A stretch of DNA of 64,000 bases, from the NCBI GenBank assembly GCA_050949565.1, contig JBMNFY010000001.1, positions 1 through 64,000 of the forward strand, read 5' to 3'. Below, in pieces: positions 10,651-55,025 of this stretch. The position numbers and the translations under genes are program-made. How positions within the stretch are numbered: position 1 is the stretch's first letter; the number at the start of each line of letters is the position of its first letter. The notes beneath the pieces are model-generated. The model was not told the DNA's origin, ran no database searches, and was given only the letters and a program-made list of their open reading frames with translations. This DNA is from Kiritimatiellia bacterium (GTDB lineage Bacteria; Verrucomicrobiota; Kiritimatiellia; RFP12; UBA1067).

Positions 10651-13377
10651 GTGGCTGTGAGCGCGCCCGGCATGCATTGGCAGACACTCCTCGTGCTGGC
10701 TTTCTGCGTCGCGTGGATTGCCGCCGTTTGTCACGAACGCCAGACCTTCAAGCGTCTCGCATCTGCCATTGCGGGCGTGTGGGCGTCTTGGCCGCCCGTG
10801 TTGCGCGCTCTTGCCGCCGCTTTCCTGGTATGCTGCACGCTGGACGCGCAGAAGTCGGGCGGCACGAACCAGACGGCAGGGGCCAGCGCCGGCGGTGCGG
10901 CGGGAGCCCCGGCTGCCGCGCCGTCGGCCCCGTCGAACCAAACGTCTGGCGGCGCTGCCGCCATGCCTGCGGAGGCAGGCGCGCCCGCTCCCGCGCTTCC
11001 GACGCTGGCGGACGGCACCAACTGCTGGTGGATCGCCGAGGGGCGCAGCCCGGCGGACACGGACATGGACGGCATGCCCGACGCTTGGGAGCGCGTCTTC
11101 GGGCTTGACCCGCTCGATCCTTCCGATGCCGCCAGCGACCATGACCGCGACGGGCTGACCGCGCTGGAAGAGTTCCTGAACAGAACACACCCGCGACGGC
11201 GGGACACAGACGGCGACGGCATGCCCGACGCCTGGGAGGCGGCGCACCGGCCCTTCCTCTGTCCCTGGCTGCCGGACGACGCCCTGGACGCGGATGAGGA
11301 CGGGCTGGACAACTTCCACGAGTACGCGCTGGGCTGCGATCCGGGCGACCCAGACTCCAATGATGACGGGCGGCCCGACGGCGAGGAGGCGGACGCGGGC
11401 GTGAACCCCCTCCTTGCGCAGGCGGACTGGGCGGCCTACGGCACGGCCCTGTTCTCCGTGCGGGTTGACGGGCTGCGCGCCGCGCGCCGCGCGGGCGTGT
11501 CTGTCGGGCATATCACGCACTCGGGGGTGTCTAAACGGACGTACGCGCTCGCCGCCGGGGAAAGCTATACGGTCACCGTCACGGACCTCGACCCGGACAA
11601 CACCAACGCCTGCTCGGGCACGGTGACCCTGTGGTTCGACGGCGCGACGGACATCTCCGGCCTCACGAACGCCGCGCCCGGATCGGCGCAATCCTTCGGC
11701 CCCGGCTTTACGGTCACCTTCCCGATCGGGTTCCCACTGCCGCCGGACGGGGGCGGCGGGAGCGGTGGCGGGGGCGGCGGGCAGTCGACCTCCGGGACGG
11801 TCACGTTCGTCGGGATCGATCTCGACGCGCCGTACACCATCTGCTGTCCGGTCCACGCGGGCGACTCGTTCACCGCGACGGCCCGCATCCATCCCGAAGG
11901 CGCGCAGATTCCGGGATGGCCCTCCTGGTCGTTCAGCTCCGGGCACGTCTCTCCGTCGGCGGGGGCGATGTCGGTGACCGTGGTGTTCGACGAATCCTTC
12001 ACGGACTGCGGGGTCGGCGCCACCGCCATTTCGCTCGGCACCCTCTCCTGCCAGATCGGCGACCGGACCGTCTCGCGCGACATCTCCTCCTGCGACATCG
12101 ACGACCCGGAGGAGGAGCCGGACTGGGACGGGCAGAGGTTCATCGCGCACCTGGAGGAAGACATCTATCCCGCGGAGCTCACCTACGCGCTCGCGCACAG
12201 CACCAACACCGTGCCGTTCGTCTGGCACGGGCCATCCCGCGACCGGGTGCTTTCCTGGGAGATCAGCGGCAGCGCGCGTTTCCTCGAGGACGGCCAGGAG
12301 AAGACCCGGGTCAAGAACGCGGACTCGGTCGCCGTCCTGCCGAAGGGCGCGGTCGGGCAGTCGCGCATCACCGCGAAGGTCAGGATCGGCGACCGCCAGA
12401 CCGTCACCGACACCGTCCTGTTCGGAACCGTCTCCCTGCGGGCCGAGCCGGTCCACAGTTTCTCGATCGGCCCCAACATCAACCCGTGCGGGCTCTTTGT
12501 CGGCGATACGGCGGTCCTTTACCTTGGGGCGGACGGCGTGGATCCGGCGCACATCCGCTGGAGCACTCGTTCCGGCGCGGTCGCGCTCGGGGCGAACTCG
12601 GCAGGTTCCCTCATCATCGAGCAGACCATCTCCGGGGCCGGCCCCGGCGCGGACACGGTCTCCGCGAACATCGACTATCTGTGGGGCGCGGGCCCGCCGC
12701 AGTACAACCTGACGGTGTACGCGCCGGAGCCCCCCATCCCCGTGCATTTCATGTTCATCTGCGACGACAACGGCAATCACGTCGGATCGGCGTCCGACAT
12801 CCCCTCCCTCATTGCGGACGTCAACTACATCTACCGCCAGGCCGGCATCCGCTTTGTGCGGGCCTCCGTCGCGTACACGAACAATAATTTCTGGTATCAG
12901 CATTCGTACAGCAATCAGGTTCAAGAGGCTATCGTTGATCTCCGCACAGGTACGGACGGGCTGGAGGTCTACATTGTCCCGGACATCGCGACAAACGTTC
13001 CCGGGAGAAATTATCCTGATAAAGGCATCTTGATGACGGGCACCGGCTCTGCCCGCACCCTCGCGCATGAGATCGGGCATGAGTGCGGGTGGGGGGACAT
13101 CTACACTTCCGCGCCCGGCCAGCCGCAAATGACGACGGTGCTTTCACCGGATCATTTGACGCCTGCCGACTGGAACAACGGGCCGGGGCCGCAGGAATAC
13201 TATCCGCGCGGGTTGCCGCTGGCGGCCGTGATCAAGCGGTGCCTGATGTTCGGGTACACATCGGGCGGCCACGACCTGCCCATGGGTTCGGTCAAGGGGT
13301 ATGATAGGGACGGGATATTTGGTTTCGTCCAGGTCGGGACATACTGGATGGATCGAAGACCGGCTCACAGTGAATAG
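10651..13377 (+). CDS. Large exported protein: membrane leader, DxDxDG Ca-binding repeats, C-terminal metzincin metallopeptidase (putative polymorphic effector A)
   Basis: Leader ends CCTLDAQK; DTDMDGMPDAWE/DHDRDG/DTDGDGMPDAWE/DADEDG repeats; TLAHEIGHECGWGD plus CLMFG Met-turn; alternative start at ATG 10672. Confidence 0.75.
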   Translation: MAVSAPGMHWQTLLVLAFCVAWIAAVCHERQTFKRLASAIAGVWASWPPVLRALAAAFLVCCTLDAQKSGGTNQTAGASAGGAAGAPAAAPSAPSNQTSGGAAAMPAEAGAPAPALPTLADGTNCWWIAEGRSPADTDMDGMPDAWERVFGLDPLDPSDAASDHDRDGLTALEEFLNRTHPRRRDTDGDGMPDAWEAAHRPFLCPWLPDDALDADEDGLDNFHEYALGCDPGDPDSNDDGRPDGEEADAGVNPLLAQADWAAYGTALFSVRVDGLRAARRAGVSVGHITHSGVSKRTYALAAGESYTVTVTDLDPDNTNACSGTVTLWFDGATDISGLTNAAPGSAQSFGPGFTVTFPIGFPLPPDGGGGSGGGGGGQSTSGTVTFVGIDLDAPYTICCPVHAGDSFTATARIHPEGAQIPGWPSWSFSSGHVSPSAGAMSVTVVFDESFTDCGVGATAISLGTLSCQIGDRTVSRDISSCDIDDPEEEPDWDGQRFIAHLEEDIYPAELTYALAHSTNTVPFVWHGPSRDRVLSWEISGSARFLEDGQEKTRVKNADSVAVLPKGAVGQSRITAKVRIGDRQTVTDTVLFGTVSLRAEPVHSFSIGPNINPCGLFVGDTAVLYLGADGVDPAHIRWSTRSGAVALGANSAGSLIIEQTISGAGPGADTVSANIDYLWGAGPPQYNLTVYAPEPPIPVHFMFICDDNGNHVGSASDIPSLIADVNYIYRQAGIRFVRASVAYTNNNFWYQHSYSNQVQEAIVDLRTGTDGLEVYIVPDIATNVPGRNYPDKGILMTGTGSARTLAHEIGHECGWGDIYTSAPGQPQMTTVLSPDHLTPADWNNGPGPQEYYPRGLPLAAVIKRCLMFGYTSGGHDLPMGSVKGYDRDGIFGFVQVGTYWMDRRPAHSE

Positions 13378-13407
13378 TCCGACGTGATAAAGGCAAAGGA
13401 GGAAGCA

Positions 13408-14709
13408 ATGATAACAAGGTGTATTTTTTTGACCGCGTTGATATTCGGCATGTGTTGGGTTTCTTTTGGGCAATACACAAGCCCGACAGATTCCGGCACG
13501 CGTATCCATAAGGTGGCCCCGACGACGAGGCCGTGGTATGAACCGGACGGCTCGCTGGAGTCGCTGAATGCGGGGTGCAACCTTGGGAACTCGGCCGGGA
13601 TGATCCGGATCATGAAAGAGGGGCTGGTCGGAGAACAGTGCCCGCTTGCGTCAACCCTTCCGGGTACCAAGAAATATATCACGAGAATTTCCGAAGCGCT
13701 TCACCGGAGCGGAGATTCCCCGGAGATCACCAACACCCTGCATCGGGCACTGCTCACGCCGAAGAACCTCTACCTCGATATCATCCTGCACGCCTACATC
13801 ATGGCCTCGCCCGTGCCGATGACGTTTCTTGCGGAAACGGTGGTCAAGGAGTTCCCCGCAGGACAGCGGAAAGCGTGGTACGCCGCAGCCGGGGAGAAGG
13901 CCCTGTACGGGAATTCCTGGGAGGACAGCCTCCTCGACCGCCCGTCACGGGAGGTGCTGCGGTATTCGCACTTCCTGAACCGGGCCAAGGCCCTTGAAAC
14001 AGACCCCGAGTGTCTGCGGGTCATCGGGAATCCCTTCGATCCCGGGCGGGAGGCTTTCCCGACGCCGGCGCCGGGCGGCGGGAAGGAGGGAGGGGAGAGG
14101 CGCGTCGCGCCCAACGGAGCCGCGCAGTTTATTTCCTGGGTCGCCCCGACAGCGCGGCCGTGGTACGAGGCGGACGACTCGCTGCGAACCGTCAACGCGA
14201 GGCTGGCGCACGGCAGGGACGGGGGGATGATCGGCCTGATCGGGGCAGAACTCCTGTCGCGGGATACGCCGCTCGCGCGGACGTCCGAGGGGACGTCGGA
14301 ATATGTCGCGGAGCTTCTCGGCATCCTCTGGCGGAACGGGGACTCGCCGGAGATCACCAACATCCTGCATCAGGCCTTGCTCGCGCCGACCAACCATTAC
14401 CGCGAGGCCACGTTCCGCGCCTACGTGATGGCCTCGCCCGTGCCGATGACGGTTCTCGCAGAGACCGTGGTCAAGAGTTTCCCCCTTGAAGAGAGGAAGG
14501 CGTGGTATGCCAGATCCGGATCGAAAAAATTGAAAACACATAGCTGGATAGACCGTTCCATCGACCGCCCGTCCCGCGAGTCGCTGCGGTATTCGCACTT
14601 CCTCAACCGCGTCAAGGTTCTCGAGACCGACCCCGATTGTCTGCGGATCATCGGCGACATCGTTGATCCAAAGTGGGAGTGTCAACAAGAGAGGAAGGAT
14701 GAAAAATGA
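13408..14709 (+). CDS. Secreted protein with two tandem ~180-aa repeats (putative partner/immunity protein)
   Basis: RBS AAGGAGG, signal peptide; duplicated VAPTxRPWYE...GDSPEITN...MASPVPMT..AETVVK.FP...DRPSRE.LRYSHFLNR.K.LETDP.CLR. Confidence 0.7.
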   Translation: MITRCIFLTALIFGMCWVSFGQYTSPTDSGTRIHKVAPTTRPWYEPDGSLESLNAGCNLGNSAGMIRIMKEGLVGEQCPLASTLPGTKKYITRISEALHRSGDSPEITNTLHRALLTPKNLYLDIILHAYIMASPVPMTFLAETVVKEFPAGQRKAWYAAAGEKALYGNSWEDSLLDRPSREVLRYSHFLNRAKALETDPECLRVIGNPFDPGREAFPTPAPGGGKEGGERRVAPNGAAQFISWVAPTARPWYEADDSLRTVNARLAHGRDGGMIGLIGAELLSRDTPLARTSEGTSEYVAELLGILWRNGDSPEITNILHQALLAPTNHYREATFRAYVMASPVPMTVLAETVVKSFPLEERKAWYARSGSKKLKTHSWIDRSIDRPSRESLRYSHFLNRVKVLETDPDCLRIIGDIVDPKWECQQERKDEK

Positions 14710-15458
14710 TGACGATGCTGATGGGTGTTTTGCTGTGCTTTTTAGGCGCTTTTCATGCGTCTGCCGCCGTGGTGTCGCAATGCGAGGCTGTCGCGGACAG
14801 GGTGCTCGTGAATGCGGACGGTTGTGTGCTGTCATGGATATCTTTGCGCGAAGGGGCGGCATGGAGCCCGGCCATCGCGGGGGCGACGTCTTGGGGATTG
14901 CCCGCGTTGGAAACGGAGGGGATCACGTTCGATACGCCGGGCGCCCCGGCCTCGCCGTTCTGCTCCAGCACCATTTCGGTTTCGACGCTCTTCATCGTAG
15001 CGTGTCCGGCAGAATCATCCAACCACTTTGCCGCACTTGTCGAGGCCCCCGGGGCGTCTGTGACAGTGGCTGCCCGTGCTTTGCCGCTGACCTACGACCC
15101 CGAGGATGCCGGAGGGCTTTCCGTACGCGTCAACGGCCAACCGGTGTGGACGTTTCCCGACGGGCGGCATATCGTGGAGGTTGATTTCGCGCAGGCCGTG
15201 CCCGGCTGCGACCTTCGGATAGGCGGGGTCTCGGCATGCGCTTCATGGCGGCAGTCATGGCGCGGCCATATATCGGAGGTTGTCGCGTTTGACACGTCGC
15301 CCGATGAGGCTGTCCGCCGGACTGTCCGAAGCTACCTCGCCCGCCGCCACGGTGTCGCGGGATACTTCCCGCCGCCCGGACCCGAGGCCGTTCTGCAGGC
15401 CATGTCGCTCGGCCTGTATACGCATTCTCTTTTCTCTACGTGGCTATTCATGCGATAA
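14706..15458 (+). CDS. Secreted LamG-like accessory protein, paralogue of 51926-52903
   Basis: Signal peptide; AALVEAP, VEVDF, WRGHISEVVAFD...VRSYLARRHG; ends STWLFMR. Confidence 0.65.
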   Translation: MMTMLMGVLLCFLGAFHASAAVVSQCEAVADRVLVNADGCVLSWISLREGAAWSPAIAGATSWGLPALETEGITFDTPGAPASPFCSSTISVSTLFIVACPAESSNHFAALVEAPGASVTVAARALPLTYDPEDAGGLSVRVNGQPVWTFPDGRHIVEVDFAQAVPGCDLRIGGVSACASWRQSWRGHISEVVAFDTSPDEAVRRTVRSYLARRHGVAGYFPPPGPEAVLQAMSLGLYTHSLFSTWLFMR

Positions 15459-18614: not shown

Positions 18615-18867
18615 AGGGGTGTGCAAGGGGTTCGCCGTGGGCGTCGCCTGTGCCCCGTCGATACGGCATCTGGTTTGCGGGGTACGGGAAAACGCTCAAC
18701 TCCCGACGTTCAAGAAAATGCGCACGCACAAAACATGCGCTTGACTCGCGTGCCTCCTGCCACTGATCGATTACTTTTTCGACAACGCAGGATTGACATC
18801 CGGCGCGGCGTGGCGCATGCTACAGATGTCCCTTTATCTTATCCCTTTGGCTAAGGAGGCCACGCGA

Positions 18868-19614
18868 ATGGTTGGTTCATTTCTGCTGCCGGCGGGTTTG
18901 CCGCTGGCTTCTTTGATTGATGGTTTTCTGATATCGAACTTGATGGGAAAAAGCATCGTTCTGATTCAGCTTGCCAGCTCAATCGTGGCTGCCGCGATCA
19001 TCATCGGCAAGAACAAGGAGTTGAACGGCATTATGCGCAACAACAAGCGTTTCCAGCGTGAGTTTCTGCGCGGCCATGATGTGCTTGATTACTATCTGAT
19101 GCGTAAAAAGGGTGTGACGGTCTCGCTCGAATTGATCTATGACCGCACCTGCGAGCGTATGGTTAAGTTGCTTGATCCTGACATGCGGCGATCGGTCATC
19201 GGACGCCAGAGCGATGCCAGTCAAGCGGCACTTTCGGCTCGCGAGATCGAGCTGGTGCGCAGCACCTGCGAGCACACCGTGCAGGAAGAGGAGATCCGTA
19301 TTGAGCATGGCATGCCTCTGCTGGCGACGATCGTGACCGCCTCGCCGATGCTCGGTCTGCTCGGGACGGTGTGGGGCGTGCTGGATGCCTTCGCCGACAT
19401 GGGCACCAAGGGTACGGTGTTGCTGTCGGAGATTGCCCCTGCGATTTCGTCGGCGCTGGTCACTACCGTCGTGGGGTTGCTGGTGGCGATCCCCAGCGCG
19501 ATCTTTTACAACACGCTCGCTACCAAAGTTCGGCAGCTTTCATCCGACATGGTCGGGTTTGCCGATGAACTATTGGGACGGATCGCCTGTGAGTTTCAAG
19601 GGAGGAGTGACTGA
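18868..19614 (+). CDS. tolQ: MotA/TolQ/ExbB proton channel protein
   Basis: LATIVTASPMLGLLGTVWG, IAPAISSALVTTVVGLLVAIP; RBS AAGGAGG before ATG 18868. Confidence 0.85.
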   Translation: MVGSFLLPAGLPLASLIDGFLISNLMGKSIVLIQLASSIVAAAIIIGKNKELNGIMRNNKRFQREFLRGHDVLDYYLMRKKGVTVSLELIYDRTCERMVKLLDPDMRRSVIGRQSDASQAALSAREIELVRSTCEHTVQEEEIRIEHGMPLLATIVTASPMLGLLGTVWGVLDAFADMGTKGTVLLSEIAPAISSALVTTVVGLLVAIPSAIFYNTLATKVRQLSSDMVGFADELLGRIACEFQGRSD

Positions 19615-20024
19615 TGGGGCTGCGACGTCTGGCTCGCAAGAAGGATTCGAAGGTCATCAACAACATCGATATGACGTCGTTGATCGACTTGACCTTTCTT
19701 TTGCTGATTACCTTTATCATCACGATGCCCGCGATTGAACAGGGCATCTCGGTGAAGTTGCCGCAGGGCAAAACGGACACGCTGCCGACCAAGAAGTCGA
19801 ACGTCGTTACGCTTGATGTTGAAGGGAGGACCTATCTCAACAACCGCGAGATCACGCTGGAGGATTTAGAGCGCACGCTGGGCAACCTCGCGGCGGAAGA
19901 TCCGGAGGTCGCGGTGCTCGTGCGCGGCGATGAGCGCCTGGAATACGGCAAGGTGGTTCGAGTGATGAAGATTCTCTACAAAGTTCGGATCACGCGCATG
20001 GCGCTGGTTACTCAATCGGACTGA
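19614..20024 (+). CDS. tolR: ExbD/TolR family protein
   Basis: IDMTSLIDLTFLLLITFIIT, VRGDE...YGKVV.VM. Confidence 0.85.
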   Translation: MGLRRLARKKDSKVINNIDMTSLIDLTFLLLITFIITMPAIEQGISVKLPQGKTDTLPTKKSNVVTLDVEGRTYLNNREITLEDLERTLGNLAAEDPEVAVLVRGDERLEYGKVVRVMKILYKVRITRMALVTQSD

Positions 20025-20031
20025 AAGGCGC

Positions 20032-20919
20032 ATGAAGACGGGACCGGTTAATTCCTACTCGCTCAAGTGGTCGATGGTGCTGCACGGCTTGCTGTTGGTG
20101 ACAGCGGTTGTGGTGCCATTGATCCCGGGGTGCCGTCCCAAGGAACTCACGATCCCGGTCGATTTCACGGTGGTGCTTGAAGAGAACCTCGTGGAGCCGA
20201 ATGTGCCGGACGACGTGCCGGAACCAGAGCCGACTCCCGATCCGCCCAAGCCCGAGCCTCTGCCAGATCCGCCTAAGCCCGAGCCATTGCCAGATCCGCC
20301 GAAACCCCAACCGCTGCCCGACCCGCCCAAGGATGTGGTGGCCACCGAAAAGAAGCCCGACCCGCCCAAGAAAAAGCCTGATCCGCCCAAAAAGCAACCC
20401 GAGAAGAAACCGACTCCCCCTAAACCCAAACCGCCGCCGAAAAAGCAGGAGTTCCAGAAAGGGAAGCGGGTGGAGGCCGCCAAGCCCAAGCAGCCGCGCT
20501 TTGAAGATTTGTACAAGCCGTACGATCCAAGCAAGCCCACCAGCACCAAGCCGGTGACCGATAAAAAACTGTCACGGGCAGAGATTGAAAAGGCGTTGCG
20601 CGCCGGTGCGCGCCCGGGTACGCGCAACATCATCCCCGAAGATGAAATCGCGCGTTGCGTGCTGTTGGTGCGGCGCGCGCTTTATGACGCTTGGTCGCAA
20701 CCGGGCTCCGCCGATGCCGGCCCGCGCCCGGCTTTGCTGGACATCCGTCTGGACGGCGCGGGTCGGATCGTCAGCTATCGCATCCGGCAATCCTCCGGTA
20801 GCGCTTACTTCGACCAGACCGTGCTCAAGGCGGCCGCCAACGCGCAGCCCATTCGCGGACTCTCTAGTAACTTCCTCAAGCAGTACGAAAATCTGACGGT
20901 CGAATTCAAGCTGGAGTGA
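20032..20919 (+). CDS. TolA/TonB-like energy transducer
   Basis: N-terminal TM with SxxLH, PDPPKPEP-rich linker, C-terminal QSSGS..FDQ.VL.A domain. Confidence 0.8.
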   Translation: MKTGPVNSYSLKWSMVLHGLLLVTAVVVPLIPGCRPKELTIPVDFTVVLEENLVEPNVPDDVPEPEPTPDPPKPEPLPDPPKPEPLPDPPKPQPLPDPPKDVVATEKKPDPPKKKPDPPKKQPEKKPTPPKPKPPPKKQEFQKGKRVEAAKPKQPRFEDLYKPYDPSKPTSTKPVTDKKLSRAEIEKALRAGARPGTRNIIPEDEIARCVLLVRRALYDAWSQPGSADAGPRPALLDIRLDGAGRIVSYRIRQSSGSAYFDQTVLKAAANAQPIRGLSSNFLKQYENLTVEFKLE

Positions 20920-38694: not shown

Positions 38695-38696
38695 GA

Positions 38697-39602
38697 TTAA
38701 ACGTCGCGGGTGCGGAAAAAGGCATAGCCGGTGAACAGATAACAGAATCCAAGGGTGATGAGGGTGGCCGAGCCCGCAATCAACGGGGCGGGAGCGTTCC
38801 GCCACAGCAACATCTTGTGTGCGTCGGGCAGCAGTTGGCCGAGGTGCGGCAGGTAGGCACGCCAGCCGGTGTCGGTGGTGAAGTGGCGGATCAGGATGGA
38901 GAGGACGAAACAGGCCGTGATGGCGAGAATGCCCATCACCGTCGCCTTGCTGGATGAGCGCGTAAGGTGCGACAATCCCATAGCCAAGCCTAAGTAGGGG
39001 ATGGAGTAAACCCACGCGCGCAACGACCACTGAACCATGTTGAAGAAGAGGTCGGGCGTGCCGGAACCGGCCAATCGGATCTTGGCGACGATATAGGCAC
39101 TGGTTCCACTTAGGAGAAGTGCCAGGCCGATCATGAACATTTGTCCGATGAATTTGCCGATCGACCAACTGGCGCGCGACGTGCGGAAAAACACGTAGCG
39201 CACCGAGCCTGACCCGATCTCCTCTGCGATACGGTTGCTGGCGACCAGCACAACCAACAATGGCGTGTAAAAAAAGGCGAACCAAGCGTAGATTAACTCT
39301 ATCGGATGTTTGCCGGTGATGTCGCGCAGAACCAGATCGTTCCGCGTCATCTGTTTCATCATGCGCTGGAACGGTTTGGATTTCCAGAGGGCGGTTGACA
39401 CCACGCCAGCCTGTTCCGAGGCCGGAAGCTTCAAGGCTGTGGCAAGTTCGGATTCCAGCCTGTGCAGCAGATTGATCGACCAGTGCATGTTGCAGACGGC
39501 GGCCGCCAGATAGAGCAGCAAGACCACCAAGGCGCGTCGGCTGCGCAGGGCGTCGAACCACTCGTAACAAGCAATATGCCACGTTTGGACCAGCGTACTC
39601 AA
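38697..39602 (-). CDS. ABC-2 type permease
   Basis: Multiple TM helices; IAEEIGSGSVRY...SR....GK motif. Confidence 0.85.
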   Translation of the reverse strand: MSTLVQTWHIACYEWFDALRSRRALVVLLLYLAAAVCNMHWSINLLHRLESELATALKLPASEQAGVVSTALWKSKPFQRMMKQMTRNDLVLRDITGKHPIELIYAWFAFFYTPLLVVLVASNRIAEEIGSGSVRYVFFRTSRASWSIGKFIGQMFMIGLALLLSGTSAYIVAKIRLAGSGTPDLFFNMVQWSLRAWVYSIPYLGLAMGLSHLTRSSSKATVMGILAITACFVLSILIRHFTTDTGWRAYLPHLGQLLPDAHKMLLWRNAPAPLIAGSATLITLGFCYLFTGYAFFRTRDV

Positions 39603-40402
39603 CGAGGCCCCCTTGAGTAACGGCGGCGACCGCTGGAGCCGGGCGCGTTTTCGAGTTTGTGTTGGACTGCGATCAAAGGTTCGGCTACAGCCGGATCGAT
39701 GAAGTCCGTGATTTCGAGTTGGGACGCCTCGCCGCGCAACTCGTCCGGCACGATCACGGCGAGGTCGTCATAGGTACGCACGAGCGAGGTGGTCATCTCA
39801 TTGAAAAACCGGACACCGAGTTCCGGCGTCATCTCTTCGCCCAAGGCCAGGGTGTCGGCAAGTCCTTGCATGGTAGCCTGCAACTCTGCGTTCATGGCGT
39901 CGATCGAAGCATCGAACAGTGCCGTGGCCTCCGCATCCAGCTTGAGGCGGTTGAGCCATTGTGAGCGCGCGATCTGCACGCGGGTGGCCCACAGTTCCTT
40001 GGCCTCCTCAATGCGTGCTTGCAGATCTTCCGGCGACGTCCTGCGAATCTCTTCGTTTTCCGCGTCTGGAGGCGGAGGCGTATTCGTGGCGGTCGCAGGG
40101 GTGGGGGTATCCGTTGTTGCCTGCGCGACGTGCGTTGTTGGTGCGGATGTCGTCACATCCGTGTCGCGGACGGCTGGTGCCGGTTTACGGTCGGGGCCGG
40201 GAACATGGGTAGCCCGTTCGGGGATTTGAACCATGCGGGTGATCGCGTCGAAGCGAGAATCCTTCTCACGGCTCGATGTTTTCGTTTTGAGGTCATCCAT
40301 CTCCCGCCGGAGCATCCGCAGTTCCTCTCGCGGCGCCCACCCGCCGATCAGGATGCCGATCAACACGGCGAAAGGCAACAGCAGAAAAGATTTCATGATC
40401 AT
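39599..40402 (-). CDS. Membrane-anchored hypothetical protein, first gene of the ABC operon
   Basis: N-terminal TM, T/P-rich linker, helical C-terminus; overlaps the permease start; start codon uncertain. Confidence 0.65.
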   Translation of the reverse strand: MIMKSFLLLPFAVLIGILIGGWAPREELRMLRREMDDLKTKTSSREKDSRFDAITRMVQIPERATHVPGPDRKPAPAVRDTDVTTSAPTTHVAQATTDTPTPATATNTPPPPDAENEEIRRTSPEDLQARIEEAKELWATRVQIARSQWLNRLKLDAEATALFDASIDAMNAELQATMQGLADTLALGEEMTPELGVRFFNEMTTSLVRTYDDLAVIVPDELRGEASQLEITDFIDPAVAEPLIAVQHKLENAPGSSGRRRYSRGPR

Positions 40403-40524
40403 GAAGCATATCACGCGGCGGTTTGCAACGACGAGTGTAAAAGCGGTTGGAATGTCATTTTTGGAGGGCGAGTGTCCTCACGAGCCGCCTTCCGCTGTGC
40501 GGAAGGATGGTCTCAGGTTTCATT

Positions 40525-41471
40525 GCGGAGCGCCGGGAGGGACGAGCGTCGCTCGTCCGGGCGGCGTTTTACGCCGCCACACGGGCAAGATGCCCGTGCC
40601 ACATCTAGTCACCCGTCTCGCGGAGCACTGGGAGGGGCAAGCGTCTGCTTGCCCGCGGACGAGCAGACGCTCGTCCCTCCCCAGCGGCGGTCACGCCGCC
40701 ACCCCGTAAAAAAATCTCTGCGCCTCCGCGTCTCTGCGTTAAAAAACCGACGAAGTGTAGGGACAAAGTGTTGCTCTGCTTTTTCGCCGCTGCATAAGCC
40801 ATTCATCCGTCTCGCGGAGCGCCGGGAGGGACGAGCGTTGCTCGTCCGGGCGGCGTTTTACGCCGCCACACGGGCAAGATGCCCGTGCCACATCTAGTCA
40901 CCCGTCTCGCGGAGCACTGGGAGGGGCAAGCGTCTGCTTGCCCGCGGACGAGCAGACGCTCGTCCCTCCCCAGCGGCGGTCACGCCGCCACCCCGTAAAA
41001 AAATCTCTGCGCCTCCGCGTCTCTGCGTTAAAAAACCGACGAAGTGTAGGGACAAAGTGTTGCTCTGCTTTTTCGCCGCTGCATAAGCCATTCATCCGTC
41101 TCGCGGAGCGCCGGGAGGGACGAGCGTTGCTCGTCCGGGCGGCGTTTTACGCCGCCACACGGGCAAGATGCCCGTGCCACATCTAGTCACCCGTCTCGCG
41201 GAGCACTGGGAGGGGCAAGCGTCTGCTTGCCCGCGGACGAGCAGACGCTCGTCCCTCCCCAGCGGCGGTCACGCCGCCACCCCGTAAAAAAATCTCTGCG
41301 CCTCCGCGTCTCTGCGTTAAAAAACCGACGAAGTGTAGGGACAAAGTGTTGCTCTGCTTTTTCGCCGCTGCATAAGCCATTCATCCGTCTCGCGGAGCGC
41401 CGGGAGGGACGAGCGTTGCTCGTCCGGGCGGCGTTTTACGCCGCCATCACGGGCAAGATGCCCGTGCCACA
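40525..41471 (+). repeat. Near-exact 289-bp tandem repeat (~3.3 copies) made of REP modules
   Basis: Units start at 40525, 40814, 41103, 41392; identical ORFs offset by 289. Confidence 0.93.
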
Positions 41472-41826
41472 CAGCCCGGTACCGGTCTTGTGCAACAAAG
41501 GGACAGGTATTTAGACGATTCAAAGTCAATCAGGATTTTGACGGGACGGTGATCTTAAACCAATCGATCCCGATAGCGATCCCGATCCCGGTTTGGATGA
41601 AATCTTGAAACCAAAGAGAGCTGAAGGTTCAACTGCTTTTAGATTCAAGTGTGCGAACGCCGATATGCAACCCGAAACCAGAAACCAGAAACCGTGCCCG
41701 CTGTCAGCGGGCTTCAAAGTTTGGTGGCGGTTGGGGGGCTGTCATGCTAAACTGGCGCGCAAATGAAGAGGCAGAGTTGACTTGCCTGTTTTGTTCCGGA
41801 GAAGCCCCCTGAAATCAGAGATCACA

Positions 41827-43458
41827 ATGCTGTCGGGTGAGCGCACGGGTGAGAAGCGTGACGGCCTGACGGATGTACTGGCCGGTGGGCCGACGTTGCA
41901 AGTGCCGCACGACCCGGCGCGGCGGCGTCAGCTCGCTGATGCCGCCGCGACCTACGCGGATCGCGAACGGCTTGAGCCACCGCTGACGGCTGAGGAACTG
42001 GCGGCGCATGCGCGCTGCCTTGGCGCGGCAATCGCCGCATGCGATGACGAACTCCCCTTTGTGGCGCTGTTGCTCAATAACATGCTGTGGCGTGAGGTCA
42101 TTGCCGGGATTCCCTTTGATCGGCGGTTGCTGCTGTTGCCGCAGTGCCTTGCCCATGCGGAGGTCTGTCGCGCCGACCGTGACGGGCTCGGTTTGCTCTG
42201 TGCGCAGTGCGGCGCGTGTGCGATCGGTGCGTTGCAGGCGGAGGCGGACCGGCTGGGATATGTGACGTTGATTGCGGAAGGCACCACCGTGGTCAGCAAG
42301 TTGCTGATGAGCGGCAAGGTCGATGCCGTGATCGGGGTGGGGTGCATGGAATCTCTGCGCCGCATCTTTCCAGTCATGAACACGCACGCCATCCCCGGAC
42401 AGGGCATCCCGTTGCTCACCGATGGCTGCGTGCGGACAACGCTGGATATCGATTGGGCGCTGGAATCGCTCCGCATCCGCAGGGCTGAAGCCAAGAATGG
42501 CGCGACCGATCTGGATGCGGTCGCCGCAGTCGTTCGTCAGTGGTTTGAGCCGGAATCGTTAGCCGTCCTGATGGGGCGTCCCGAAACCGAGGCGCAGCGT
42601 GTGGGGCAGGCGTGGCTGGCGACGGGCGGCAAACGCTGGCGGCCGCTGCTGACGGCGGCGGTCTATGAGGCTGCGGGCGGTGACATCGAACGGATCAAGG
42701 CGGCGGCGGTGGCGGTCGAGTGCTTCCACAAAGCGTCGTTGGTGCATGACGACATCGAGGATGGTGACGTTGAACGCTATGGCGAACCGACCGTCCATGC
42801 GCAGGTCGGCGTGCCGGCCGCGATCAATGTCGGCGACTATCTGATCGGCGAGGGCTACCGCTTGCTGGCGTCGTCTGAGTTTGATGGCGCGGTGTGCGCG
42901 GAGATGCTGCTGGCTGCGGCCAACGGTCACCGCGAACTCTGCCTAGGGCAAGGCGAGGAACTGGCTTTTTGCCGTAAGCCGGCACCGGTTACCGAGGCCG
43001 AGGTGTTGCGCATCTATGCGCAGAAGACTGCGGCGGCGTTCGAGGTCGCCGTGCAGGTCGGCGCAACAGCGGCTGGTGTCGGCGCGGAGACGCGCGCGCT
43101 GCTTTCGGCGTTCAGCCAGGCGGTCGGAACCGCTTATCAGATCCAGGATGACATCGCGGATTTCCACTCGGTGCGCGGACGGGCCGCCGACATGCTGGCC
43201 ATGCGGCCGACGCTCTTTCTGGCTGCGGCCTGCACCAGCGAGCACCCTGCCGTGCGCGAAGCGTTGAAGGCGGTCTGGCAGGGTGATGCCGCCGGTCGTG
43301 AACGCCTGATTGACGCGATTACCGAGGCGGGCCTGCGTACGCGCGTTGATTTGCTCTATGCCCATTACAAACACGAGACCACGCGCGTGCTCTCCGACAT
43401 TCCGCACAGTGGACTTAAACGGCTGTTGCGCCGGATCATGAAACGCATGCTGCGCTAG
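41827..43458 (+). CDS. DUF116-polyprenyl synthetase fusion
   Basis: RRLLLLPQCL...C....CAQCGAC (DUF116); GGKRWRP, LVHDDIED, GQ, KT, YQIQDD. Confidence 0.85.
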   Translation: MLSGERTGEKRDGLTDVLAGGPTLQVPHDPARRRQLADAAATYADRERLEPPLTAEELAAHARCLGAAIAACDDELPFVALLLNNMLWREVIAGIPFDRRLLLLPQCLAHAEVCRADRDGLGLLCAQCGACAIGALQAEADRLGYVTLIAEGTTVVSKLLMSGKVDAVIGVGCMESLRRIFPVMNTHAIPGQGIPLLTDGCVRTTLDIDWALESLRIRRAEAKNGATDLDAVAAVVRQWFEPESLAVLMGRPETEAQRVGQAWLATGGKRWRPLLTAAVYEAAGGDIERIKAAAVAVECFHKASLVHDDIEDGDVERYGEPTVHAQVGVPAAINVGDYLIGEGYRLLASSEFDGAVCAEMLLAAANGHRELCLGQGEELAFCRKPAPVTEAEVLRIYAQKTAAAFEVAVQVGATAAGVGAETRALLSAFSQAVGTAYQIQDDIADFHSVRGRAADMLAMRPTLFLAAACTSEHPAVREALKAVWQGDAAGRERLIDAITEAGLRTRVDLLYAHYKHETTRVLSDIPHSGLKRLLRRIMKRMLR

Positions 43459-50921: not shown

Positions 50922-51719
50922 ATGTTTCCGATTCAACTTGACCGACCCTTGATTGTGTTTGATATTGAAGCCACCGGCATCAGCCCGCGCGCGGACCGAA
51001 TCATCGAACTGGCCGCAATCCGGATCGAGCCGGATGGCACGCAGGTCAACGGCTACTGGCTGTTGAACCCCGGTGTTCCGATCCCGATCGAAACGACCGC
51101 CATTCACGGCATCACCGACGAGATCGTGGCCTCCCAGCCGACCTTTAAAGACAAGGCGCTGGAGATCCTGGCTTTCTTCGGCGAAGCAGACCTGGCAGGC
51201 TTTAACGCGGGTCGTTTCGACATTCCGATGCTGGCCGAAGAGTTCGCGCGCGCGGGCATCACGTTCGAGGCCGACCGTCGCAGGTTACTTGACGCACAAC
51301 GCATCTTCCACACGCGGGAACCGCGTGATCTTTCGGCCGCGCTGAGTTTCTACTGCGGCCGCGAGCATGTCGATGCGCACGGTGCCGAGGCGGACGTACG
51401 CGCGACGCTGGATGTGATTCTTGGTCAGTTCAAGAAATACGCTGATCTGCCGCGTGACATGGAGACGCTGGACCGCACCTTCAATCCGATTGATCCGTTT
51501 AACGCCGACCGTGCTGGTCGTCTGCGCTGGGTGGACGGCGAGTTGACCGTGAATTTCGGCAGGAAAAAGGGTGCCAAACTGAAAGATCTTGTCCGTGATG
51601 ATCCGAGTTTCGTGAAGTGGATCATCAAAAACGATTTTCCTCAGGATACGCGCGCGATTTGCGAGGACGCGCTCAAGGGTGTTTTTCCCGCGCCGCCGCG
51701 CCCCAAAGGTGATAAGTAG
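50922..51719 (+). CDS. DEDDh 3'-5' exonuclease (DnaQ-like)
   Basis: FDIEATG, IHGI, GFN..FD, H.A.AD; C-terminal FG.KKG. Confidence 0.9.
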   Translation: MFPIQLDRPLIVFDIEATGISPRADRIIELAAIRIEPDGTQVNGYWLLNPGVPIPIETTAIHGITDEIVASQPTFKDKALEILAFFGEADLAGFNAGRFDIPMLAEEFARAGITFEADRRRLLDAQRIFHTREPRDLSAALSFYCGREHVDAHGAEADVRATLDVILGQFKKYADLPRDMETLDRTFNPIDPFNADRAGRLRWVDGELTVNFGRKKGAKLKDLVRDDPSFVKWIIKNDFPQDTRAICEDALKGVFPAPPRPKGDK

Positions 51720-51925
51720 AATAAGCAGTAAGTTGAAATAGCAAGCAGAAACCGTGAAATCATATCCGACCGTTTTTCAGAAACCGCTTTCGGGTTGACT
51801 GATCGGCCCGTGATGTAGTAGAGTCCCTGTGTAATTGAATGTGGAGGTAGCGCAAGGGCGGGGGCAGTCGTCACCTTCTGGCCCAAGAAAGAGCCGCCCA
51901 GGGTCAGCTCTAACGTTATTTGGAT

Positions 51926-52903
51926 ATGCCAACTCCTTCATACCTTTATTGCGTGATCACGGTCAGCATCCTGTGGACGCTCTGGTTCATCGCCCTCGGT
52001 TTGGAGCGCGGGTGGTTCCGCGACGTATGGCAGGGTTGGGCAACCTTGCCGCCTTCCACGAAGGCCATCATGGCCGTGTTATGCGTGTATTGCACGGTGA
52101 TCGCGCAGAAGCCGACCAACGTGAACAACTCCGCCGCGTCGCCGCACACCGGACAGCCGGCGGGCGGCGCGGTCGCTCAGCAACAACAGGCGCAGCCCGC
52201 CTCGCCCTCAACGCCGCCGCCCTTGCCCGCGACGCAGGGCGGACCGTCCGGCGTCCAGTCCGAACCCTCCCGCATCGTGCTCCAGGCCACACTCGCCGCC
52301 GACCCCGGAGTCGCGGCCGCGTTCAGCGGCGAGCCGGGCTGGAGCCTGCCCGCCGCCGTGCCCGCCACGCCCAGGCTCAACGCGCTCTCGTTCGCGGGCA
52401 ACGCGACGAACCCCGTCTCCCCCGTCTGCTTCTCCAATATCGCGGCGGTCACGGTCCAGACCCTCATGCTCGTGACGCGCGGGGACGCCGCCGACCTCGC
52501 CACGCTCGTTGACGCGCCGGAGACGGCGCGCCTGCGGCTCGTTTCCGACGGCAGCCGCCAGACGGAGCCGGGGGCGGCGGAGCTGTCGCTGACCCGGCAA
52601 TTCATCCCGCAGCAGTGGCAGGTTGTCGCCGTCGACTTCGAAAGTCCCGCCGATCTCACCGAAATGTTTTTCGGCGGCACAGCCGGACGCCCCGCCTGGA
52701 ATCGCGGCTGGCGGGGGGAGATCGCGGAGATCTTGGGGTTCAACACGCCGCCGGGCGCGGATGTCCGGGCGGGCGTGGCCAACTATCTCTCGATCCGCTG
52801 GGGTCTTGCCCCGCACCCCGCCTCGCCGGAGCAGCGCCGGGCTGCAATCGACGCGGGACTCAGCTACGGGCTTGTGTGGGGGTCGGTGCTTCTCCTAAAA
52901 TGA
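51926..52903 (+). CDS. Membrane-leader plus LamG-like accessory protein (locus B)
   Basis: Leader ..ERGWF..VWQGWATLPP..KA...CVYCTVIAQK resembles the effector A N-terminus; C-terminal half resembles 14706-15458 (LATLVDAP, VAVDF, WRGEIAEILGF...VANYLSIRWG); ends GSVLLLK. Confidence 0.7.
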   Translation: MPTPSYLYCVITVSILWTLWFIALGLERGWFRDVWQGWATLPPSTKAIMAVLCVYCTVIAQKPTNVNNSAASPHTGQPAGGAVAQQQQAQPASPSTPPPLPATQGGPSGVQSEPSRIVLQATLAADPGVAAAFSGEPGWSLPAAVPATPRLNALSFAGNATNPVSPVCFSNIAAVTVQTLMLVTRGDAADLATLVDAPETARLRLVSDGSRQTEPGAAELSLTRQFIPQQWQVVAVDFESPADLTEMFFGGTAGRPAWNRGWRGEIAEILGFNTPPGADVRAGVANYLSIRWGLAPHPASPEQRRAAIDAGLSYGLVWGSVLLLK

Positions 52904-52913
52904 GTGCGATGAC

Positions 52914-55025
52914 GTGAAAACCATGCTTCCAATCTGTTGCGCAGCGGCCGGTTTGCTGGCCGCGGTCTTGCCGGGGCGGGCCGCCCTTCCCCAGTGGTAT
53001 CAGGACGCGGGGCTGCCCGCGGCGGACACCGACGGCGACGGCATCCCCGACGCCTGGGAGCGGAGGACGTTCAGCGACCCGGCCGTCGCGGACTCCCACC
53101 TCGACCGGGACGGCGACGGGCTGACCGACCTGGAGGAGTTTGCCTTCGGCTCCGACCCGCGCACCTTCTCGACCATGGGCGACGGCTGGTCGGACCTCGA
53201 GAAGCGCGGCGCGGGGCTGGACGCCGCCTTCCGGGTCGTGCCGACGGTCAGCCACGCCCAGTGGCTGGCGTGGCTGGGCTGGGACGCGCAGACGTGGCAG
53301 AGGCTGACCGCCACCGACACGGAGGGGTTTGTCGTGGTCTATGGGGGATTCGTCTACAACACGCCGCCCTACTCGGAAGAGGCGGGCACCGTGGACTTCT
53401 GGCTGGAGACGCGCACCGACCGGCCCGCGTGGCTCACGGTGGGCGACGCGCTCACGACCAACAGCTTCCCGGTCCGGGCCGGGACCGGCCGCGTGCGCCT
53501 CCGGGTTGTCTACGGCGGGCCGGTCACGCTCACGCTCGACCCCCTGCCCGGAACGCTCGCGGATCTCCCCGGCGCGACCAACGGGCTGTGGCTCTGCGAA
53601 ATGTCGGTCCTCCCGGCGCACGCCAACACCGTCGTCTTCACGGTCGGCCAGACGCCGCCGCCCCCGCCCGGCAACCCGGACAGCGTGAACGGCCTCCTCC
53701 TGCTCGCGCCGCCGCCCGTCGGTCCCGTCCGCCCTCTGGATACACCGGCCCCGTCCGTCACGGCCCAGCCCCTGCGCATGACGGACGGCACAGTGTTCCT
53801 GGGCGGGAGCGGCTGGTACTGCCTGCGCGATAACTCCGCGTGCGCCTGGCCGGATTACGCGATGCTCGGTTGCGATCCGGTCAGCATGGAGATGTGCGGC
53901 GTCTCGGGCGACACCCCGCTTATCTCCAGAGAGGACGCGCTGGAGATTTTCATGGCGCGGCAACCCAGCATCCAATGCACGATAACCCAGCCCGTGGTGA
54001 ATGTGACCTACCCCTTCCTGCACGGCAGGGTCATCTTCCGGGTCAGGCTGTGCGAGGCCGTCGGCGGGGTCTTCGGCGCGGAACAAACCGACGGGCACGA
54101 GCCGAGCTACGAAAGCCCGTCCCGCTGCACCGGGATCGGATGCGGCTGCAAGGACGGGCCGCGCTGGGACATCGGCTTCAGCCACTCCGCCGTCAACACC
54201 CGCAACATCTTTCCCCGCATCGGGCCCGACAAGACCGACTCCCCACCCACCGAGCACTGCCTCGGCGTGGTCTGGAGCCCCGGCGGAAAGATCAGCCTCT
54301 TCGGCCTGCTGCACTACGGCTACCTGTACCTGCCCGACACTAACGTGCTGAGCTTCACCTCCGACAACCTGACGGTCAACGGAAAAGGCGAACTGCTGTT
54401 CGGCGACAGGCCGGAAGACTTGAAGCCCGCCATTTCGCTGGTCAAGCTGCACTACAAGCCCGATTCCGAAACAGACGTTATTTTCGACAAACTCTGGGTG
54501 GTGGTCAATGCGCCAGAAACAAAAACGGAGTTCGATGGCTGGTATGCGCGAAACGCCGACATCAGTTGGACGACGAACCTGCCGCGCCCGTTCGCCAGCA
54601 TAGCCCTCGCGACGAATGCTGCGGGAAAAGTCATCGGCCCTGTCGATCCGGAGCCTGCCGCCCCGAACCGGTGGGGAAAGCCGCATCCCATCAATTCCTA
54701 TCTCCACCATGACGCGAAGTACGAGATGCGTTCAAGGCCATCCGGCAAGCATGGGCACCAGGCGATGTATGACGACCAAGGACAACTCATTACTGCTCCG
54801 ATCGCGGCAGGGACAGCCGACCTGTACGCACCATTCGATTCACTGGGGATACCCTCGTCAGCAAAAAGCCACAGAGATCAAGATGTTTATCCGTTCATCC
54901 GCGCTTTGCAACTTGATGGCAATCCGGTGCTGTCCACGGACATCAACCGCAATCTCAACCGCCCCTGCATTTACGTGGGGCCCAACACAGACAAGTACGT
55001 CAAAAGACGCCCTGTTCTGCCATAG
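52914..55025 (+). CDS. Secreted DxDxDG-repeat protein with C-terminal AMOP-like tip (putative polymorphic effector B)
   Basis: Signal peptide; DTDGDGIPDAWE, DRDGDGLTDLEEF; tip W..LP.P...YLHHDAKYEMRS..GHQAMYD..G.LIT...AGTAD...H...DVYPF...Y..RRP. Confidence 0.75.
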   Translation: MKTMLPICCAAAGLLAAVLPGRAALPQWYQDAGLPAADTDGDGIPDAWERRTFSDPAVADSHLDRDGDGLTDLEEFAFGSDPRTFSTMGDGWSDLEKRGAGLDAAFRVVPTVSHAQWLAWLGWDAQTWQRLTATDTEGFVVVYGGFVYNTPPYSEEAGTVDFWLETRTDRPAWLTVGDALTTNSFPVRAGTGRVRLRVVYGGPVTLTLDPLPGTLADLPGATNGLWLCEMSVLPAHANTVVFTVGQTPPPPPGNPDSVNGLLLLAPPPVGPVRPLDTPAPSVTAQPLRMTDGTVFLGGSGWYCLRDNSACAWPDYAMLGCDPVSMEMCGVSGDTPLISREDALEIFMARQPSIQCTITQPVVNVTYPFLHGRVIFRVRLCEAVGGVFGAEQTDGHEPSYESPSRCTGIGCGCKDGPRWDIGFSHSAVNTRNIFPRIGPDKTDSPPTEHCLGVVWSPGGKISLFGLLHYGYLYLPDTNVLSFTSDNLTVNGKGELLFGDRPEDLKPAISLVKLHYKPDSETDVIFDKLWVVVNAPETKTEFDGWYARNADISWTTNLPRPFASIALATNAAGKVIGPVDPEPAAPNRWGKPHPINSYLHHDAKYEMRSRPSGKHGHQAMYDDQGQLITAPIAAGTADLYAPFDSLGIPSSAKSHRDQDVYPFIRALQLDGNPVLSTDINRNLNRPCIYVGPNTDKYVKRRPVLP

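Follow-up and report, generated by a model that had tools for sequence, protein, structure and literature searches.

Organisation of the two loci

The window analysed here comprises the first 64,000 nucleotides (nt) of contig JBMNFY010000001.1 from assembly GCA_050949565.1 of a Kiritimatiellia bacterium (contig C1 of genome G000 in our numbering, an assembly of 21 contigs that is 92% complete). It contains two distant gene cassettes: locus A, made up of effA (10651-13377, 908 amino acids (aa)), mid (13384-14709, 441 aa) and accA (14706-15458, 250 aa), and locus B, made up of accB (51920/51926-52903, 327 aa) and effB (52914-55025, 703 aa) with an array of repeated units on the 3' side. These open reading frame (ORF) positions had already been given, correctly, in a preliminary description of the window made from the DNA letters alone. 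Sequence comparison indicates that the loci are two architectural types of one Kiritimatiellia-restricted, multi-copy, recombining cassette family, in which an effector with a thrombospondin type-3 (TSP3) stalk and an exchangeable C-terminal tip is encoded beside a lectin-like accessory protein. The preliminary description had proposed a single family whose leader, accessory and effector form a complex: the family itself, the presence of the leader on either subunit and, in silico, an accessory-stalk complex were supported by the present analysis, whilst its label of an AMOP-like tip was not. The features of both loci are as follows:

Locus A
10363-10650, + strand: region 5' of locus A, of which 10363-10563 is common with the C17 paralogue (84.7% identity by blastn to C17:101301-101098)
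10651-10854, + strand: effA leader, aa 1-68; hydrophobic helix, ER..F..W..WPP..R loop and short hydrophobic segment ending CCTLDAQK
10855-11016, + strand: effA spacer, aa 69-122, Ala/Pro/Gly-rich, as read from sequence
11017-11418, + strand: effA TSP3 calcium-binding stalk, aa ~123-256, beginning at a conserved WW; predicted accessory docking site
11419-12699, + strand: effA variable beta-rich middle, aa 257-683, with 22-55% identity to paralogues
12700-13377, + strand: effA tip A, aa 684-908; putative zinc protease domain with AHEIGHECGWGDIY, from its motif and adamalysin-like predicted fold
13384-14709, + strand: mid, signal-peptide protein with two ~210-aa repeats; candidate protector/inhibitor of tip A
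14706-15458, + strand: accA; signal peptide, ConA/LamG-like jelly roll, C-terminal helices and hydrophobic tail, from alignment and model

Locus B
51720-58036, no strand: extent of the locus-B island, from RNA-library contigs joining 51719 to 58037
51920-52111, + strand: accB leader, aa 1-64, with ATG at 51926 and ending CTVIAQK, from alignment and leader profile
52112-52267, + strand: accB spacer, Pro/Gln/Ala-rich, as read from sequence
52268-52903, + strand: accB accessory domain, homologous to accA (E 9e-16)
52914-53228, + strand: effB ordinary signal peptide, aa 1-23, and TSP3 stalk, aa 24-105, from sequence, BLASTP and Pfam
53229-54695, + strand: effB middle, common with C17:743219-745858, whose N-terminus differs
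54696-55025, + strand: effB tip B, last ~108 aa, beginning LHHDAKYEMRS (repeat family D1)
55038-55781, + strand: partner 1, 247 aa, signal peptide, no Pfam family
55797-56138, + strand: orphan tip B copy 1, 113 aa; homology to effB begins exactly at the tip boundary
56135-56908, + strand: partner 2, 257 aa, signal peptide, from sequence comparison
56916-57673, + strand: partner 3, reading frame broken near the 3' end (repeat families D6/D7)
57692-58021, + strand: orphan tip B copy 2, DNA 91.8% identical to 54702-55016

At the DNA level the internal repeat of mid lies at 13705-14027 and 14332-14654, and the protein probably starts at residue 9 of the annotated frame. The frame of partner 3 breaks between ~57535 and 57620, with its C-terminal WHD.KW motif going on in another frame, and the gene is either a pseudogene or affected by an assembly error.

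A rare leader on either subunit

Residues 6-113 of effA and 6-110 of accB align in BLASTP with 27% identity (E 3e-4), and the accB leader aligns with an orthologous effector from another assembly (L002) with 40% identity over 62 aa (E 3e-7), in agreement with the preliminary description, which had seen a common leader in both loci. Reading frames and alignment also place this leader where it had been described, on the effector in locus A and on the accessory in locus B, with the remaining subunit of each pair (accA and effB) bearing an ordinary signal peptide as read from the sequence. The leader is ~65 aa long and consists of an acidic or neutral start, a ~20-residue hydrophobic helix, a loop of the form ER..F..W..(W/L)PP..(R/K) that holds the positive charges, and a hydrophobic segment of 11-14 residues that includes an invariant Cys; small-x-K(P/S) and a spacer of ~50 Ala/Pro/Gln/Gly-rich residues follow. 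In case of the plain-signal-peptide effectors the mature protein begins at the stalk itself (LPQWYQD... in effB), and for this reason leader and spacer together can be viewed as a portable substitute for a signal peptide.

The motif C[TS]xxAQK is found near the N-terminus of 4 of the 25,522 ORFs of the genome, all within these cassettes. A leader profile built from eight aligned leaders (alignment A2) retrieved seven genome ORFs at E≤1e-26, the next match being a truncated copy (7e-6), and gave 10 matches at E≤1e-3 among 1,835,955,588 representative proteins, every one of them N-terminal. Two architectures were present amongst these ten: leader-spacer-TSP3 effector (P0024-P0026, with the fragment P0033 probably also of this type) and leader-spacer-accessory (P0027-P0032), so that this census, which the preliminary description had suggested, found the leader only at the N-termini of effectors or accessories. 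No family in Pfam or NCBIfam matched the leader (best E in either library 0.098), which on the strength of these searches appears to be a genuine, very rare module.

In the G041 genome (L014), a plain-signal-peptide accessory precedes an effector in which a two-helix leader is combined with TSP3 repeats and tip B (E 3.4e-24), and two partner-B-like genes (E 6e-6) come next, whereas in G000 and G356 (L019), which have the same type of tip B and partner, the leader is found on the accessory and the plain signal peptide on the effector. Judged from gene order and alignment, this comparison directly shows the leader moving between the subunits, and the earlier suggestion that it can sit on either of them holds. 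In G362 and G293 a plain-signal-peptide accessory comes before an effector whose leader is of the two-helix form and whose tip, the third kind, bears HExxH; signal-peptide partners come after it. The narrow leader profile scored the two-helix leaders of the G362, G293, G041 and G314 effectors, and of a second group of ~1,300-aa TSP3 proteins described further below, at no more than 12.7 bits (with E computed at Z=1); this match is marginal, and whilst these leaders seem to have the same layout, homology is not claimed.

Two other readings of the leader were rejected. A lipobox ([LVI][ASTVI][GAS]C) at the conserved Cys is at odds with the preceding residue, which is C, Y or T in 8/8 aligned leaders, and a twin-arginine reading of the loop fits one orthologue only (ERRWF, L019) and not the ERG.F of the others. 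A further alternative, which we consider somewhat unlikely and which would be compatible with the effector-protector reading put forward below, is that the leader is a mere long cleaved export signal spreading by recombination on the first gene of the operon, with no complex needed: the second hydrophobic segment would then act as the h-region of a Sec signal whose cleavage follows the small residue preceding (Q/D/T)K, and the first helix would be an N-terminal extension. In agreement with such a signal, the second segment is only 11-14 residues long and leads into A|Q, A|D or G|T, the residues at -1 and -3 being small; the loop preceding it holds the positive charges; the leader is always on the first gene of the accessory/effector pair; and it has itself been exchanged between paralogues, the effA leader of the window being 28-32% identical to theirs as against 92-100% for the stalk. 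However, the 50-aa Ala/Pro/Gln spacer always occurs with the leader and is absent from plain-signal-peptide forms, which suggests a tether; furthermore, different genomes share a conserved first helix and ER..F..W..P loop, and the predicted binding of accessory to stalk is independent of the leader. The extended signal peptides of autotransporters (ESPR) also have an N-terminal extension before a signal-peptide-like hydrophobic segment, as is the case here, although the present leader differs from them in having no Pfam/NCBIfam match, in having a ~20-residue hydrophobic helix as its extension and in the long spacer that comes after it.

The accessory protein and its predicted docking on the effector stalk

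The accessories of the two loci align with 28% identity over 204 columns (E 9e-16), as had been noticed from the sequence. No Pfam family was matched by accA or accB at E≤0.1, and Laminin_G was not amongst the matches; nevertheless, the fold of the LamG-like accessory postulated in the preliminary description was borne out by structure prediction. The accessory model (pLDDT 81, pTM 0.84) is similar to the lectin-like domain of a phage (cyanophage) tailspike (VIA Z 13.8, root mean square deviation (rmsd) 3.0, 173 aligned residues) and to the lectin domain of trypanosomal sialidase (trans-sialidase; VIA Z 12.0, rmsd 3.2, 163 aligned), and at Z 9-11 to the arabinanase binding domain, the jelly-roll domains of clostridial neurotoxin/NTNH and the lectin module of a streptococcal minor pilin; Foldseek alone was weak (best E 1.2e-3). 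The accessory is thus predicted to be a ConA/LamG-like jelly-roll beta-sandwich. All accessories end in a short hydrophobic tail with a basic residue (...LFSTWLFMR, ...VWGSVLLLK, ...LFTPVFVVR), as seen in alignment A1 and in the L014-L017 ORFs; in the model this tail is a lower-confidence terminal helix and lies outside the predicted stalk interface.

Both effectors had been described as carrying a DxDxDG stalk, and this is what BLASTP comparison of effA with effB supports (TSP3 alignment, E 9e-13 and 2e-11). The Pfam family TSP3_bac (PF18884, cut-off 25 bits) is matched by effB above its cut-off (34.1 bits) and by effA below it (21.3 bits), and effA contains three strict DxDxDGxx[DN]xxE motifs. 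A search of the PDB sequences returned nothing for effA and only TSP3-region or chance matches for effB. One TSP3 repeat of effA also matches NCBIfam NF042425 (Amuc_1099 family pilus-like system protein; E 1.5e-4, 21.4 bits), and membership of this family was rejected as the score is far under the 50-bit cut-off. TSP3 repeats alone are common in the genome, with the strict motif present in 31 ORFs of ≥200 aa: the specific feature of these cassettes is the adjacency of accessory and effector and not the TSP3 repeat itself.

Despite their differing effectors, C17 and the window have accessory regions with 99% identity in DNA. Since changes in leader, middle or tip are not accompanied by changes in the accessory, the latter was expected to bind the constant stalk. 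Prediction of a complex between accA 21-250 and effA 97-690, using our own shallow alignments (14 and 20 rows) and three controls, gave interface scores (ipSAE) of 0.47, 0.65 and 0.67 (median 0.65), with 0.00 as the best of the three controls; for comparison, the benchmark mark for this score is met by 58/80 solved complexes and 2/110 mismatched pairs, counts that are rough owing to the use of our own alignments. At least 73% of the contacts agree between the runs, and the partner pLDDT is at least 83. On the effector side, the predicted interface is made up of stalk residues 126-208 (the WW motif, WERVFG and RTHPRRRDTDGDG) together with residues 275-294, and on the accessory side of the loops 57-63, 106-134 and 169-181. 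This modelling, which was the structural check advised in the preliminary description, supports docking of the accessory on the TSP3 stalk. An 879-aa protein encoded at C17:743219-745858 (locus L013, to 746598) carries the effB middle and tip B behind a repeat-rich signal-peptide N-terminus; it lacks a TSP3 stalk, and its gene has a partner gene on the 3' side and no adjoining accessory, which fits an accessory that serves the stalk.

In the signature domain of thrombospondin, a type-3 calcium-binding wire wraps a lectin-like beta-sandwich. The arrangement predicted here, with TSP3-type DxDxDG repeats packing on a ConA-like jelly roll, is reminiscent of this, and it differs in being formed by two separate polypeptides from adjoining genes. 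Homology to thrombospondin is not claimed, because no thrombospondin chain was present among the 50 best structural matches listed. If the pairing of accessory and stalk is true, the complex would be a split bacterial counterpart of the TSP3-wire-plus-lectin arrangement of animal thrombospondin.

The effector tips

Tips A and B gave no alignment with each other in BLASTP, consistent with their earlier description as unrelated. In tip A, the motif AHExxHxCGxxDIY is invariant in 11/11 aligned paralogues and matches the metzincin zinc site HExxHxxGxx(H/D), whilst an RxxM that is also invariant in 11/11 paralogues is a candidate Met-turn only. Foldseek comparison of the tip A model (pLDDT 66.7) gave 61 PDB matches at E≤1e-3 with TM-scores of 0.36-0.50, the best of them being ADAM-8, snake-venom adamalysins, pappalysin and fragilysin. 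The Pfam families Reprolysin_3 (best E 1.1e-3) and Reprolysin_5 (best E 0.013) were both matched under their cut-offs and over the zinc site only, and a tip A profile searched against the PDB sequences returned nothing meaningful. The zinc motif and the predicted fold therefore support the metzincin assignment made in the preliminary description, and the model suggests that tip A is a metzincin-like (adamalysin-like) zinc protease outside the curated MEROPS M12B/Pfam Reprolysin families.

Tip B is a His-rich domain of ~108 aa. The AMOP-like character that had been ascribed to it is unsupported: no Pfam match was obtained at E≤0.1 beyond the TSP3 region of effB, and none at E≤0.01 in the orphan tip. 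In an ESM Atlas look-up, effB 270-703 scored 0.82 and mid 0.81, both under the useful level. In the wider database, tip A is found in 27 longer proteins, 10 of which have a recorded TSP3 Pfam match, and tip B in 43 proteins, mostly TSP3 proteins of ~700 aa, from assemblies labelled Kiritimatiellia or Lentisphaerae.

Mosaic cassettes, orphan tips and partner arrays

The genome contains eight accessory genes in five type-A and three type-B cassettes:

Type-A cassettes: C1 (window); C10:46358-52635 (C10a); C13:5528-11815; C17:92595-101136; C10:254749-259341 (C10b), truncated
Type-B cassettes: C1 (window); C7 (at the contig end); C17:1056647-1065188

The stalk of effA in the window (residues 97-296) is 92-100% identical to the stalks of its paralogues, and identity falls to 18-50% for the leader, 22-55% for the middle and 56-88% for the tip; the effectors of C10a and C17 are 92-100% identical up to about residue 566 and 22-50% identical beyond it. 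These identities show that the cassettes are recombination mosaics, with a constant stalk around which leader, middle and tip have been exchanged.

In the type-A cassette on C17 the gene order is effector (with a tip X), divergent mid, orphan tip, two standard mids and accessory. Tip X is 32% identical to the orphan tip of this cassette, and the divergent mid is 30-35% identical to the standard mids, so that in type A a divergent tip is accompanied by a divergent mid; the orphan fragment begins at the last middle domain, and its tip is 54% identical to tip A of the window. The truncated C10b (L009) has the first ~25 leader residues joined straight to the middle, with second helix, spacer and stalk deleted, followed by a tip with a different C-terminal half, a 449-aa signal-peptide mid that has no relation to the standard mids and, ahead of the accessory, what is left of the end of a standard tip and of the beginning of a standard mid.

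Locus B of the window is arranged as effB, partner 1, orphan tip, partner 2, partner 3 (frame broken) and orphan tip, giving one full tip, two orphan tips and three partners, with both orphan tips beginning exactly at the tip boundary LHHDAKYEMRS. The type-B copy on C17 contains one full tip, two orphan tips and six partners, and the orthologous locus of G356 likewise has one orphan tip. All mids and partners start with signal-peptide-like sequences. By analogy, orphan tips together with arrays of signal-peptide partners have the organisation of polymorphic toxin-immunity loci, and with multi-copy mosaics, orphan tips and partner arrays all present, the likeliest function moves from plain surface display to a diversifying effector/protector system.

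Distribution and population data

Related loci were found in Kiritimatiellia metagenome-assembled genomes. The accessory family comprises 18 proteins in a search of 5.8 billion sequences. Of 401 genomes sampled from the phylum, G000 among them, seven have it, and all seven belong to one order, which bears out the lineage restriction that had been supposed; with G000 excluded, the accessory is present in 1/17 genomes of family f1, 1/1 of f4 and 4/6 of f5. Co-occurrence of the accessory with TSP3 variable-tip effectors in other genomes had been named as one test of the family: a TSP3 effector adjoins the accessory in seven of the eight other-genome loci whose contig reaches that side (L002, L004, L014, L015, L017, L019 and L021), a count that omits L001, L003, L005=L020 and L018 as their contigs end on the relevant side. 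The eighth locus, L016, consists of a 119-aa stub with leader and stalk start, a partner and the accessory.

The locus was also detected in bioreactor/digester metagenomes and six RNA libraries, from 19 studies. In the four RNA libraries compared, accB and effB were covered by contigs in all four, with one 2.2-kb contig spanning both genes; such contigs can neither prove transcription nor assign paralogues. Since contigs are not depth, parts of locus B that lack an RNA contig (e.g. 56721-56947 and 57402-57855) are uninformative. In 3/4 of the libraries a contig joins 51719 to 58037 with 67 other letters in between, and hence represents the site without the 6.3-kb island: these contigs show the locus-B island to be a presence/absence polymorphism. 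No terminal direct or inverted repeats bounding the island were found. Backward joints (55868>54779) in 3/4 runs may be chimeric tips or paralogue reads and cannot be assigned.

These data also decide on the explanation that the cassettes reflect chance or low-complexity likeness, or an artefact of metagenome assembly, to which we attach a negligible probability. The assembly does consist of 21 contigs, and one type-B copy lies at a contig end (C7) and is 99.3% identical to that of the window; however, the pairwise and profile statistics are significant, and the same gene sets are present in independent assemblies of other genera and in public runs from 19 studies, and this explanation is excluded.

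More serious, albeit still unlikely in our view, is the explanation that these are surface-displayed or secreted digestive or adhesive proteins, with effectors that would be extracellular proteases or binding proteins serving to break down polymers in anaerobic digesters, with a glycan-targeting lectin-like accessory and with partners that act as periplasmic self-inhibitors or folding helpers. Mosaicism would in this case represent substrate diversification or surface-antigen variation, and the orphan tips would be silent gene-conversion cassettes. Serralysin-type proteases have co-encoded inhibitors. The bioreactor/digester communities from which the locus comes are in keeping with this explanation, as are the similarity of the tip A fold to broad-specificity extracellular metzincins and an accessory fold that is typical of carbohydrate-binding modules and lectin domains. 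TSP3 repeats are, moreover, common in the genome (31 ORFs), and the copies of tip B are only moderately diverged, with weak co-variation of tip and partner. Against this explanation, orphan tips alternate with intact signal-peptide partners and the partners outnumber the tips (6 vs 3 in the C17 array), a pattern of immunity arrays that is unlike silent antigen cassettes; a divergent mid follows a divergent tip; and the island is missing from the same site in related populations.

Proposed role and comparison with known systems

With homology, modular mosaicism, orphan modules, a narrow distribution, folds and a predicted accessory-stalk interface established by the analysis, we favour on balance, if with reserve, a Kiritimatiellia-restricted, Sec-exported polymorphic effector-protector system with a lectin-like subunit that binds the stalk. 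Effector and accessory would both cross the cytoplasmic membrane by Sec, and both interacting subunits do carry Sec-type signals. Leader and spacer take the place of the ordinary signal peptide on one of these subunits only, and the subunit bearing them would either stay tethered through leader and spacer or be cleaved at A|QK. The accessory would bind the TSP3 stalk of the effector, and the complex would be displayed or released, possibly via one of the secretin pathways of the genome, in which six secretin matches were found, five of them above the family cut-off. The tip could then act on an envelope or extracellular target, whilst the mid or partner would be the cognate periplasmic protector (immunity protein or inhibitor) that neutralises the tip in the producer; mid and partner genes are duplicated together with spare, promoterless tip fragments. 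Within this scheme, toxicity, immunity, tethering and the outer-membrane route are the parts that we infer. A type VI secretion system (T6SS) effector with N-terminal transmembrane helices was rejected as an alternative, as TssC had no match in the 92%-complete genome and as the partner subunit of each cassette has a plain signal peptide.

Several points weigh against an effector-protector system. Neither tip matches a curated toxin family, and mids and partners match no immunity family in the library searches. The tip A model is of only moderate confidence (pLDDT 66.7), and copies of tip B are 66-98% identical to each other, far under the diversity of classic polymorphic toxin tips. In a comparison of type-B tip and partner identities over 15 non-independent pairs, rho was 0.39 (p 0.15), with a joint rise only in the T1/T4/T6 cluster that could equally be explained by co-duplication of whole modules. 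The complex was predicted from shallow alignments, and the accessory residues of its interface are not enriched in conservation (12/29 vs 83/230 elsewhere). Proteases with periplasmic inhibitors occur in nutritional secretion systems as well, and it is difficult to see how a protein tethered in the cytoplasmic membrane would act outside a diderm cell.

The closest known kind of system would, by analogy, be the polymorphic toxins. As far as the Sec-exported representatives are covered in the parts of Zhang et al. 2012 (PMC3482391) used here, these have in common with the present cassettes a constant N-terminal part, exchangeable C-terminal domains, a protector gene directly 3' and stand-alone tip cassettes with protectors. 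The same parts of that source describe laminin-G domains at the N-termini of toxins delivered by the type II secretion system, where they are proposed to be anchors on the producer surface. Measured against these sections, the present family differs in that its lectin-like domain is a separate protein rather than an N-terminal domain, that its constant part is a TSP3 stalk and not RHS or filamentous-haemagglutinin repeats, that its tips and partners fall outside the described Tox and Imm families, with low diversity of tip B, and that both of its tip types pair with signal-peptide partners. In Myxococcus, outer-membrane exchange involves membrane-tethered polymorphic SitA lipoprotein toxins and a TSP3-bearing TraB in the delivery apparatus, to go by the portion of PMC12045341 consulted, and compared with these lipoproteins the leader here is without a lipobox.

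A second parallel concerns the orphan modules. In CdiA-CT/CdiI and Rhs-CT systems, promoterless tip fragments that start from a fixed junction motif, each with a small partner gene, are found 3' of the full-length gene. The cassettes described here are alike in having orphan tips from a fixed junction, partner genes and an array 3' of the full-length gene, and they are different in that parts of a two-partner secretion system or a T6SS were not seen, TssC included, and in the junctions themselves, which are LHHDAKYEMRS for tip B and lie at about residue 590-610 of effA for tip A. Kiritimatiellota abound as degraders of polymers in digesters, guts and sediments, and no paper on antagonism or protein-display systems in them was found in the open-access literature searched. 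A bolder form of the effector-protector reading, which we put forward only tentatively, is an unrecognised Sec-dependent polymorphic delivery system of one Kiritimatiellia order, with a split thrombospondin-like head, a portable tethering leader and orphan tip/immunity arrays that recombine at fixed junctions.

Novel features are a lectin-like subunit that is encoded separately, a TSP3 stalk that is both the constant recombination handle and the predicted docking site, a leader that switches between subunits and uncharacterised families of tips and partners from an unstudied phylum. The family supplies new tip families and new candidate protector families, together with a leader that is absent from curated libraries and occurs 10 times in 1.84 billion representative proteins; the occurrence of the same membrane leader on either of two interacting subunits provides a natural experiment on the assembly of a two-part exported complex.

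Related proteins, surroundings of the loci and other repeats

G000 encodes a second family of ~1,300-aa TSP3 proteins that have another two-helix leader ending GGSK, a P/A/Q spacer, a ~250-aa domain and a tip-A-like metzincin end, with orphan-sized fragments nearby:

Long TSP3 proteins (loci L022-L025): C17:1937018-1940866; C17:1943964-1947812; C2:49489-53370; C17:1106586-1110509; C17:1085355-1089389
Orphan-sized tip-A-like fragments near them: C17:1102257, 1103705 and 1105276; C14:44719; C15:79926 and 121208

The possibility that the ~250-aa domain of these proteins is a fused accessory was rejected (hhalign probability 0.4%). At C19:17262-21922 (L012), an ORF with a GGSK-type leader is followed by TSP3-bearing ORFs in shifting frames, which looks like a broken copy of a long TSP3 gene or the result of assembly errors.

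Upstream of locus A lie housekeeping genes (hisA-type, M16 peptidase, RNA methyltransferase) and upstream of locus B genes for a ligase, a patatin and a solute-binding protein; no secretion machinery is found beside either locus. Genes for ExbB, ExbD and a TonB-C-terminal protein at 18793-20919, 3.3 kb 3' of locus A, are treated as coincidental.

No Rfam family was matched in window positions 33000-42000, and three further repeats were seen in this region. A ~290-nt element at 37030-37324 is present in more than 40 copies over the contigs of the genome with ~88-98% identity, contains a microrepeat of five TGGTTTCA units at 37069-37108 and, judged by its sequence, looks like a miniature mobile or repetitive element. 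At 40525-41471 there is a 289-nt tandem repeat of 3.3 copies with 99% identity, the unit of which is also repeated in contig C6 (54263-55457). Positions 33776-35105 hold a perfect direct duplication of 668 nt (33776-34443 = 34438-35105), at the end of and after a 1,249-aa ORF (30223-33972).

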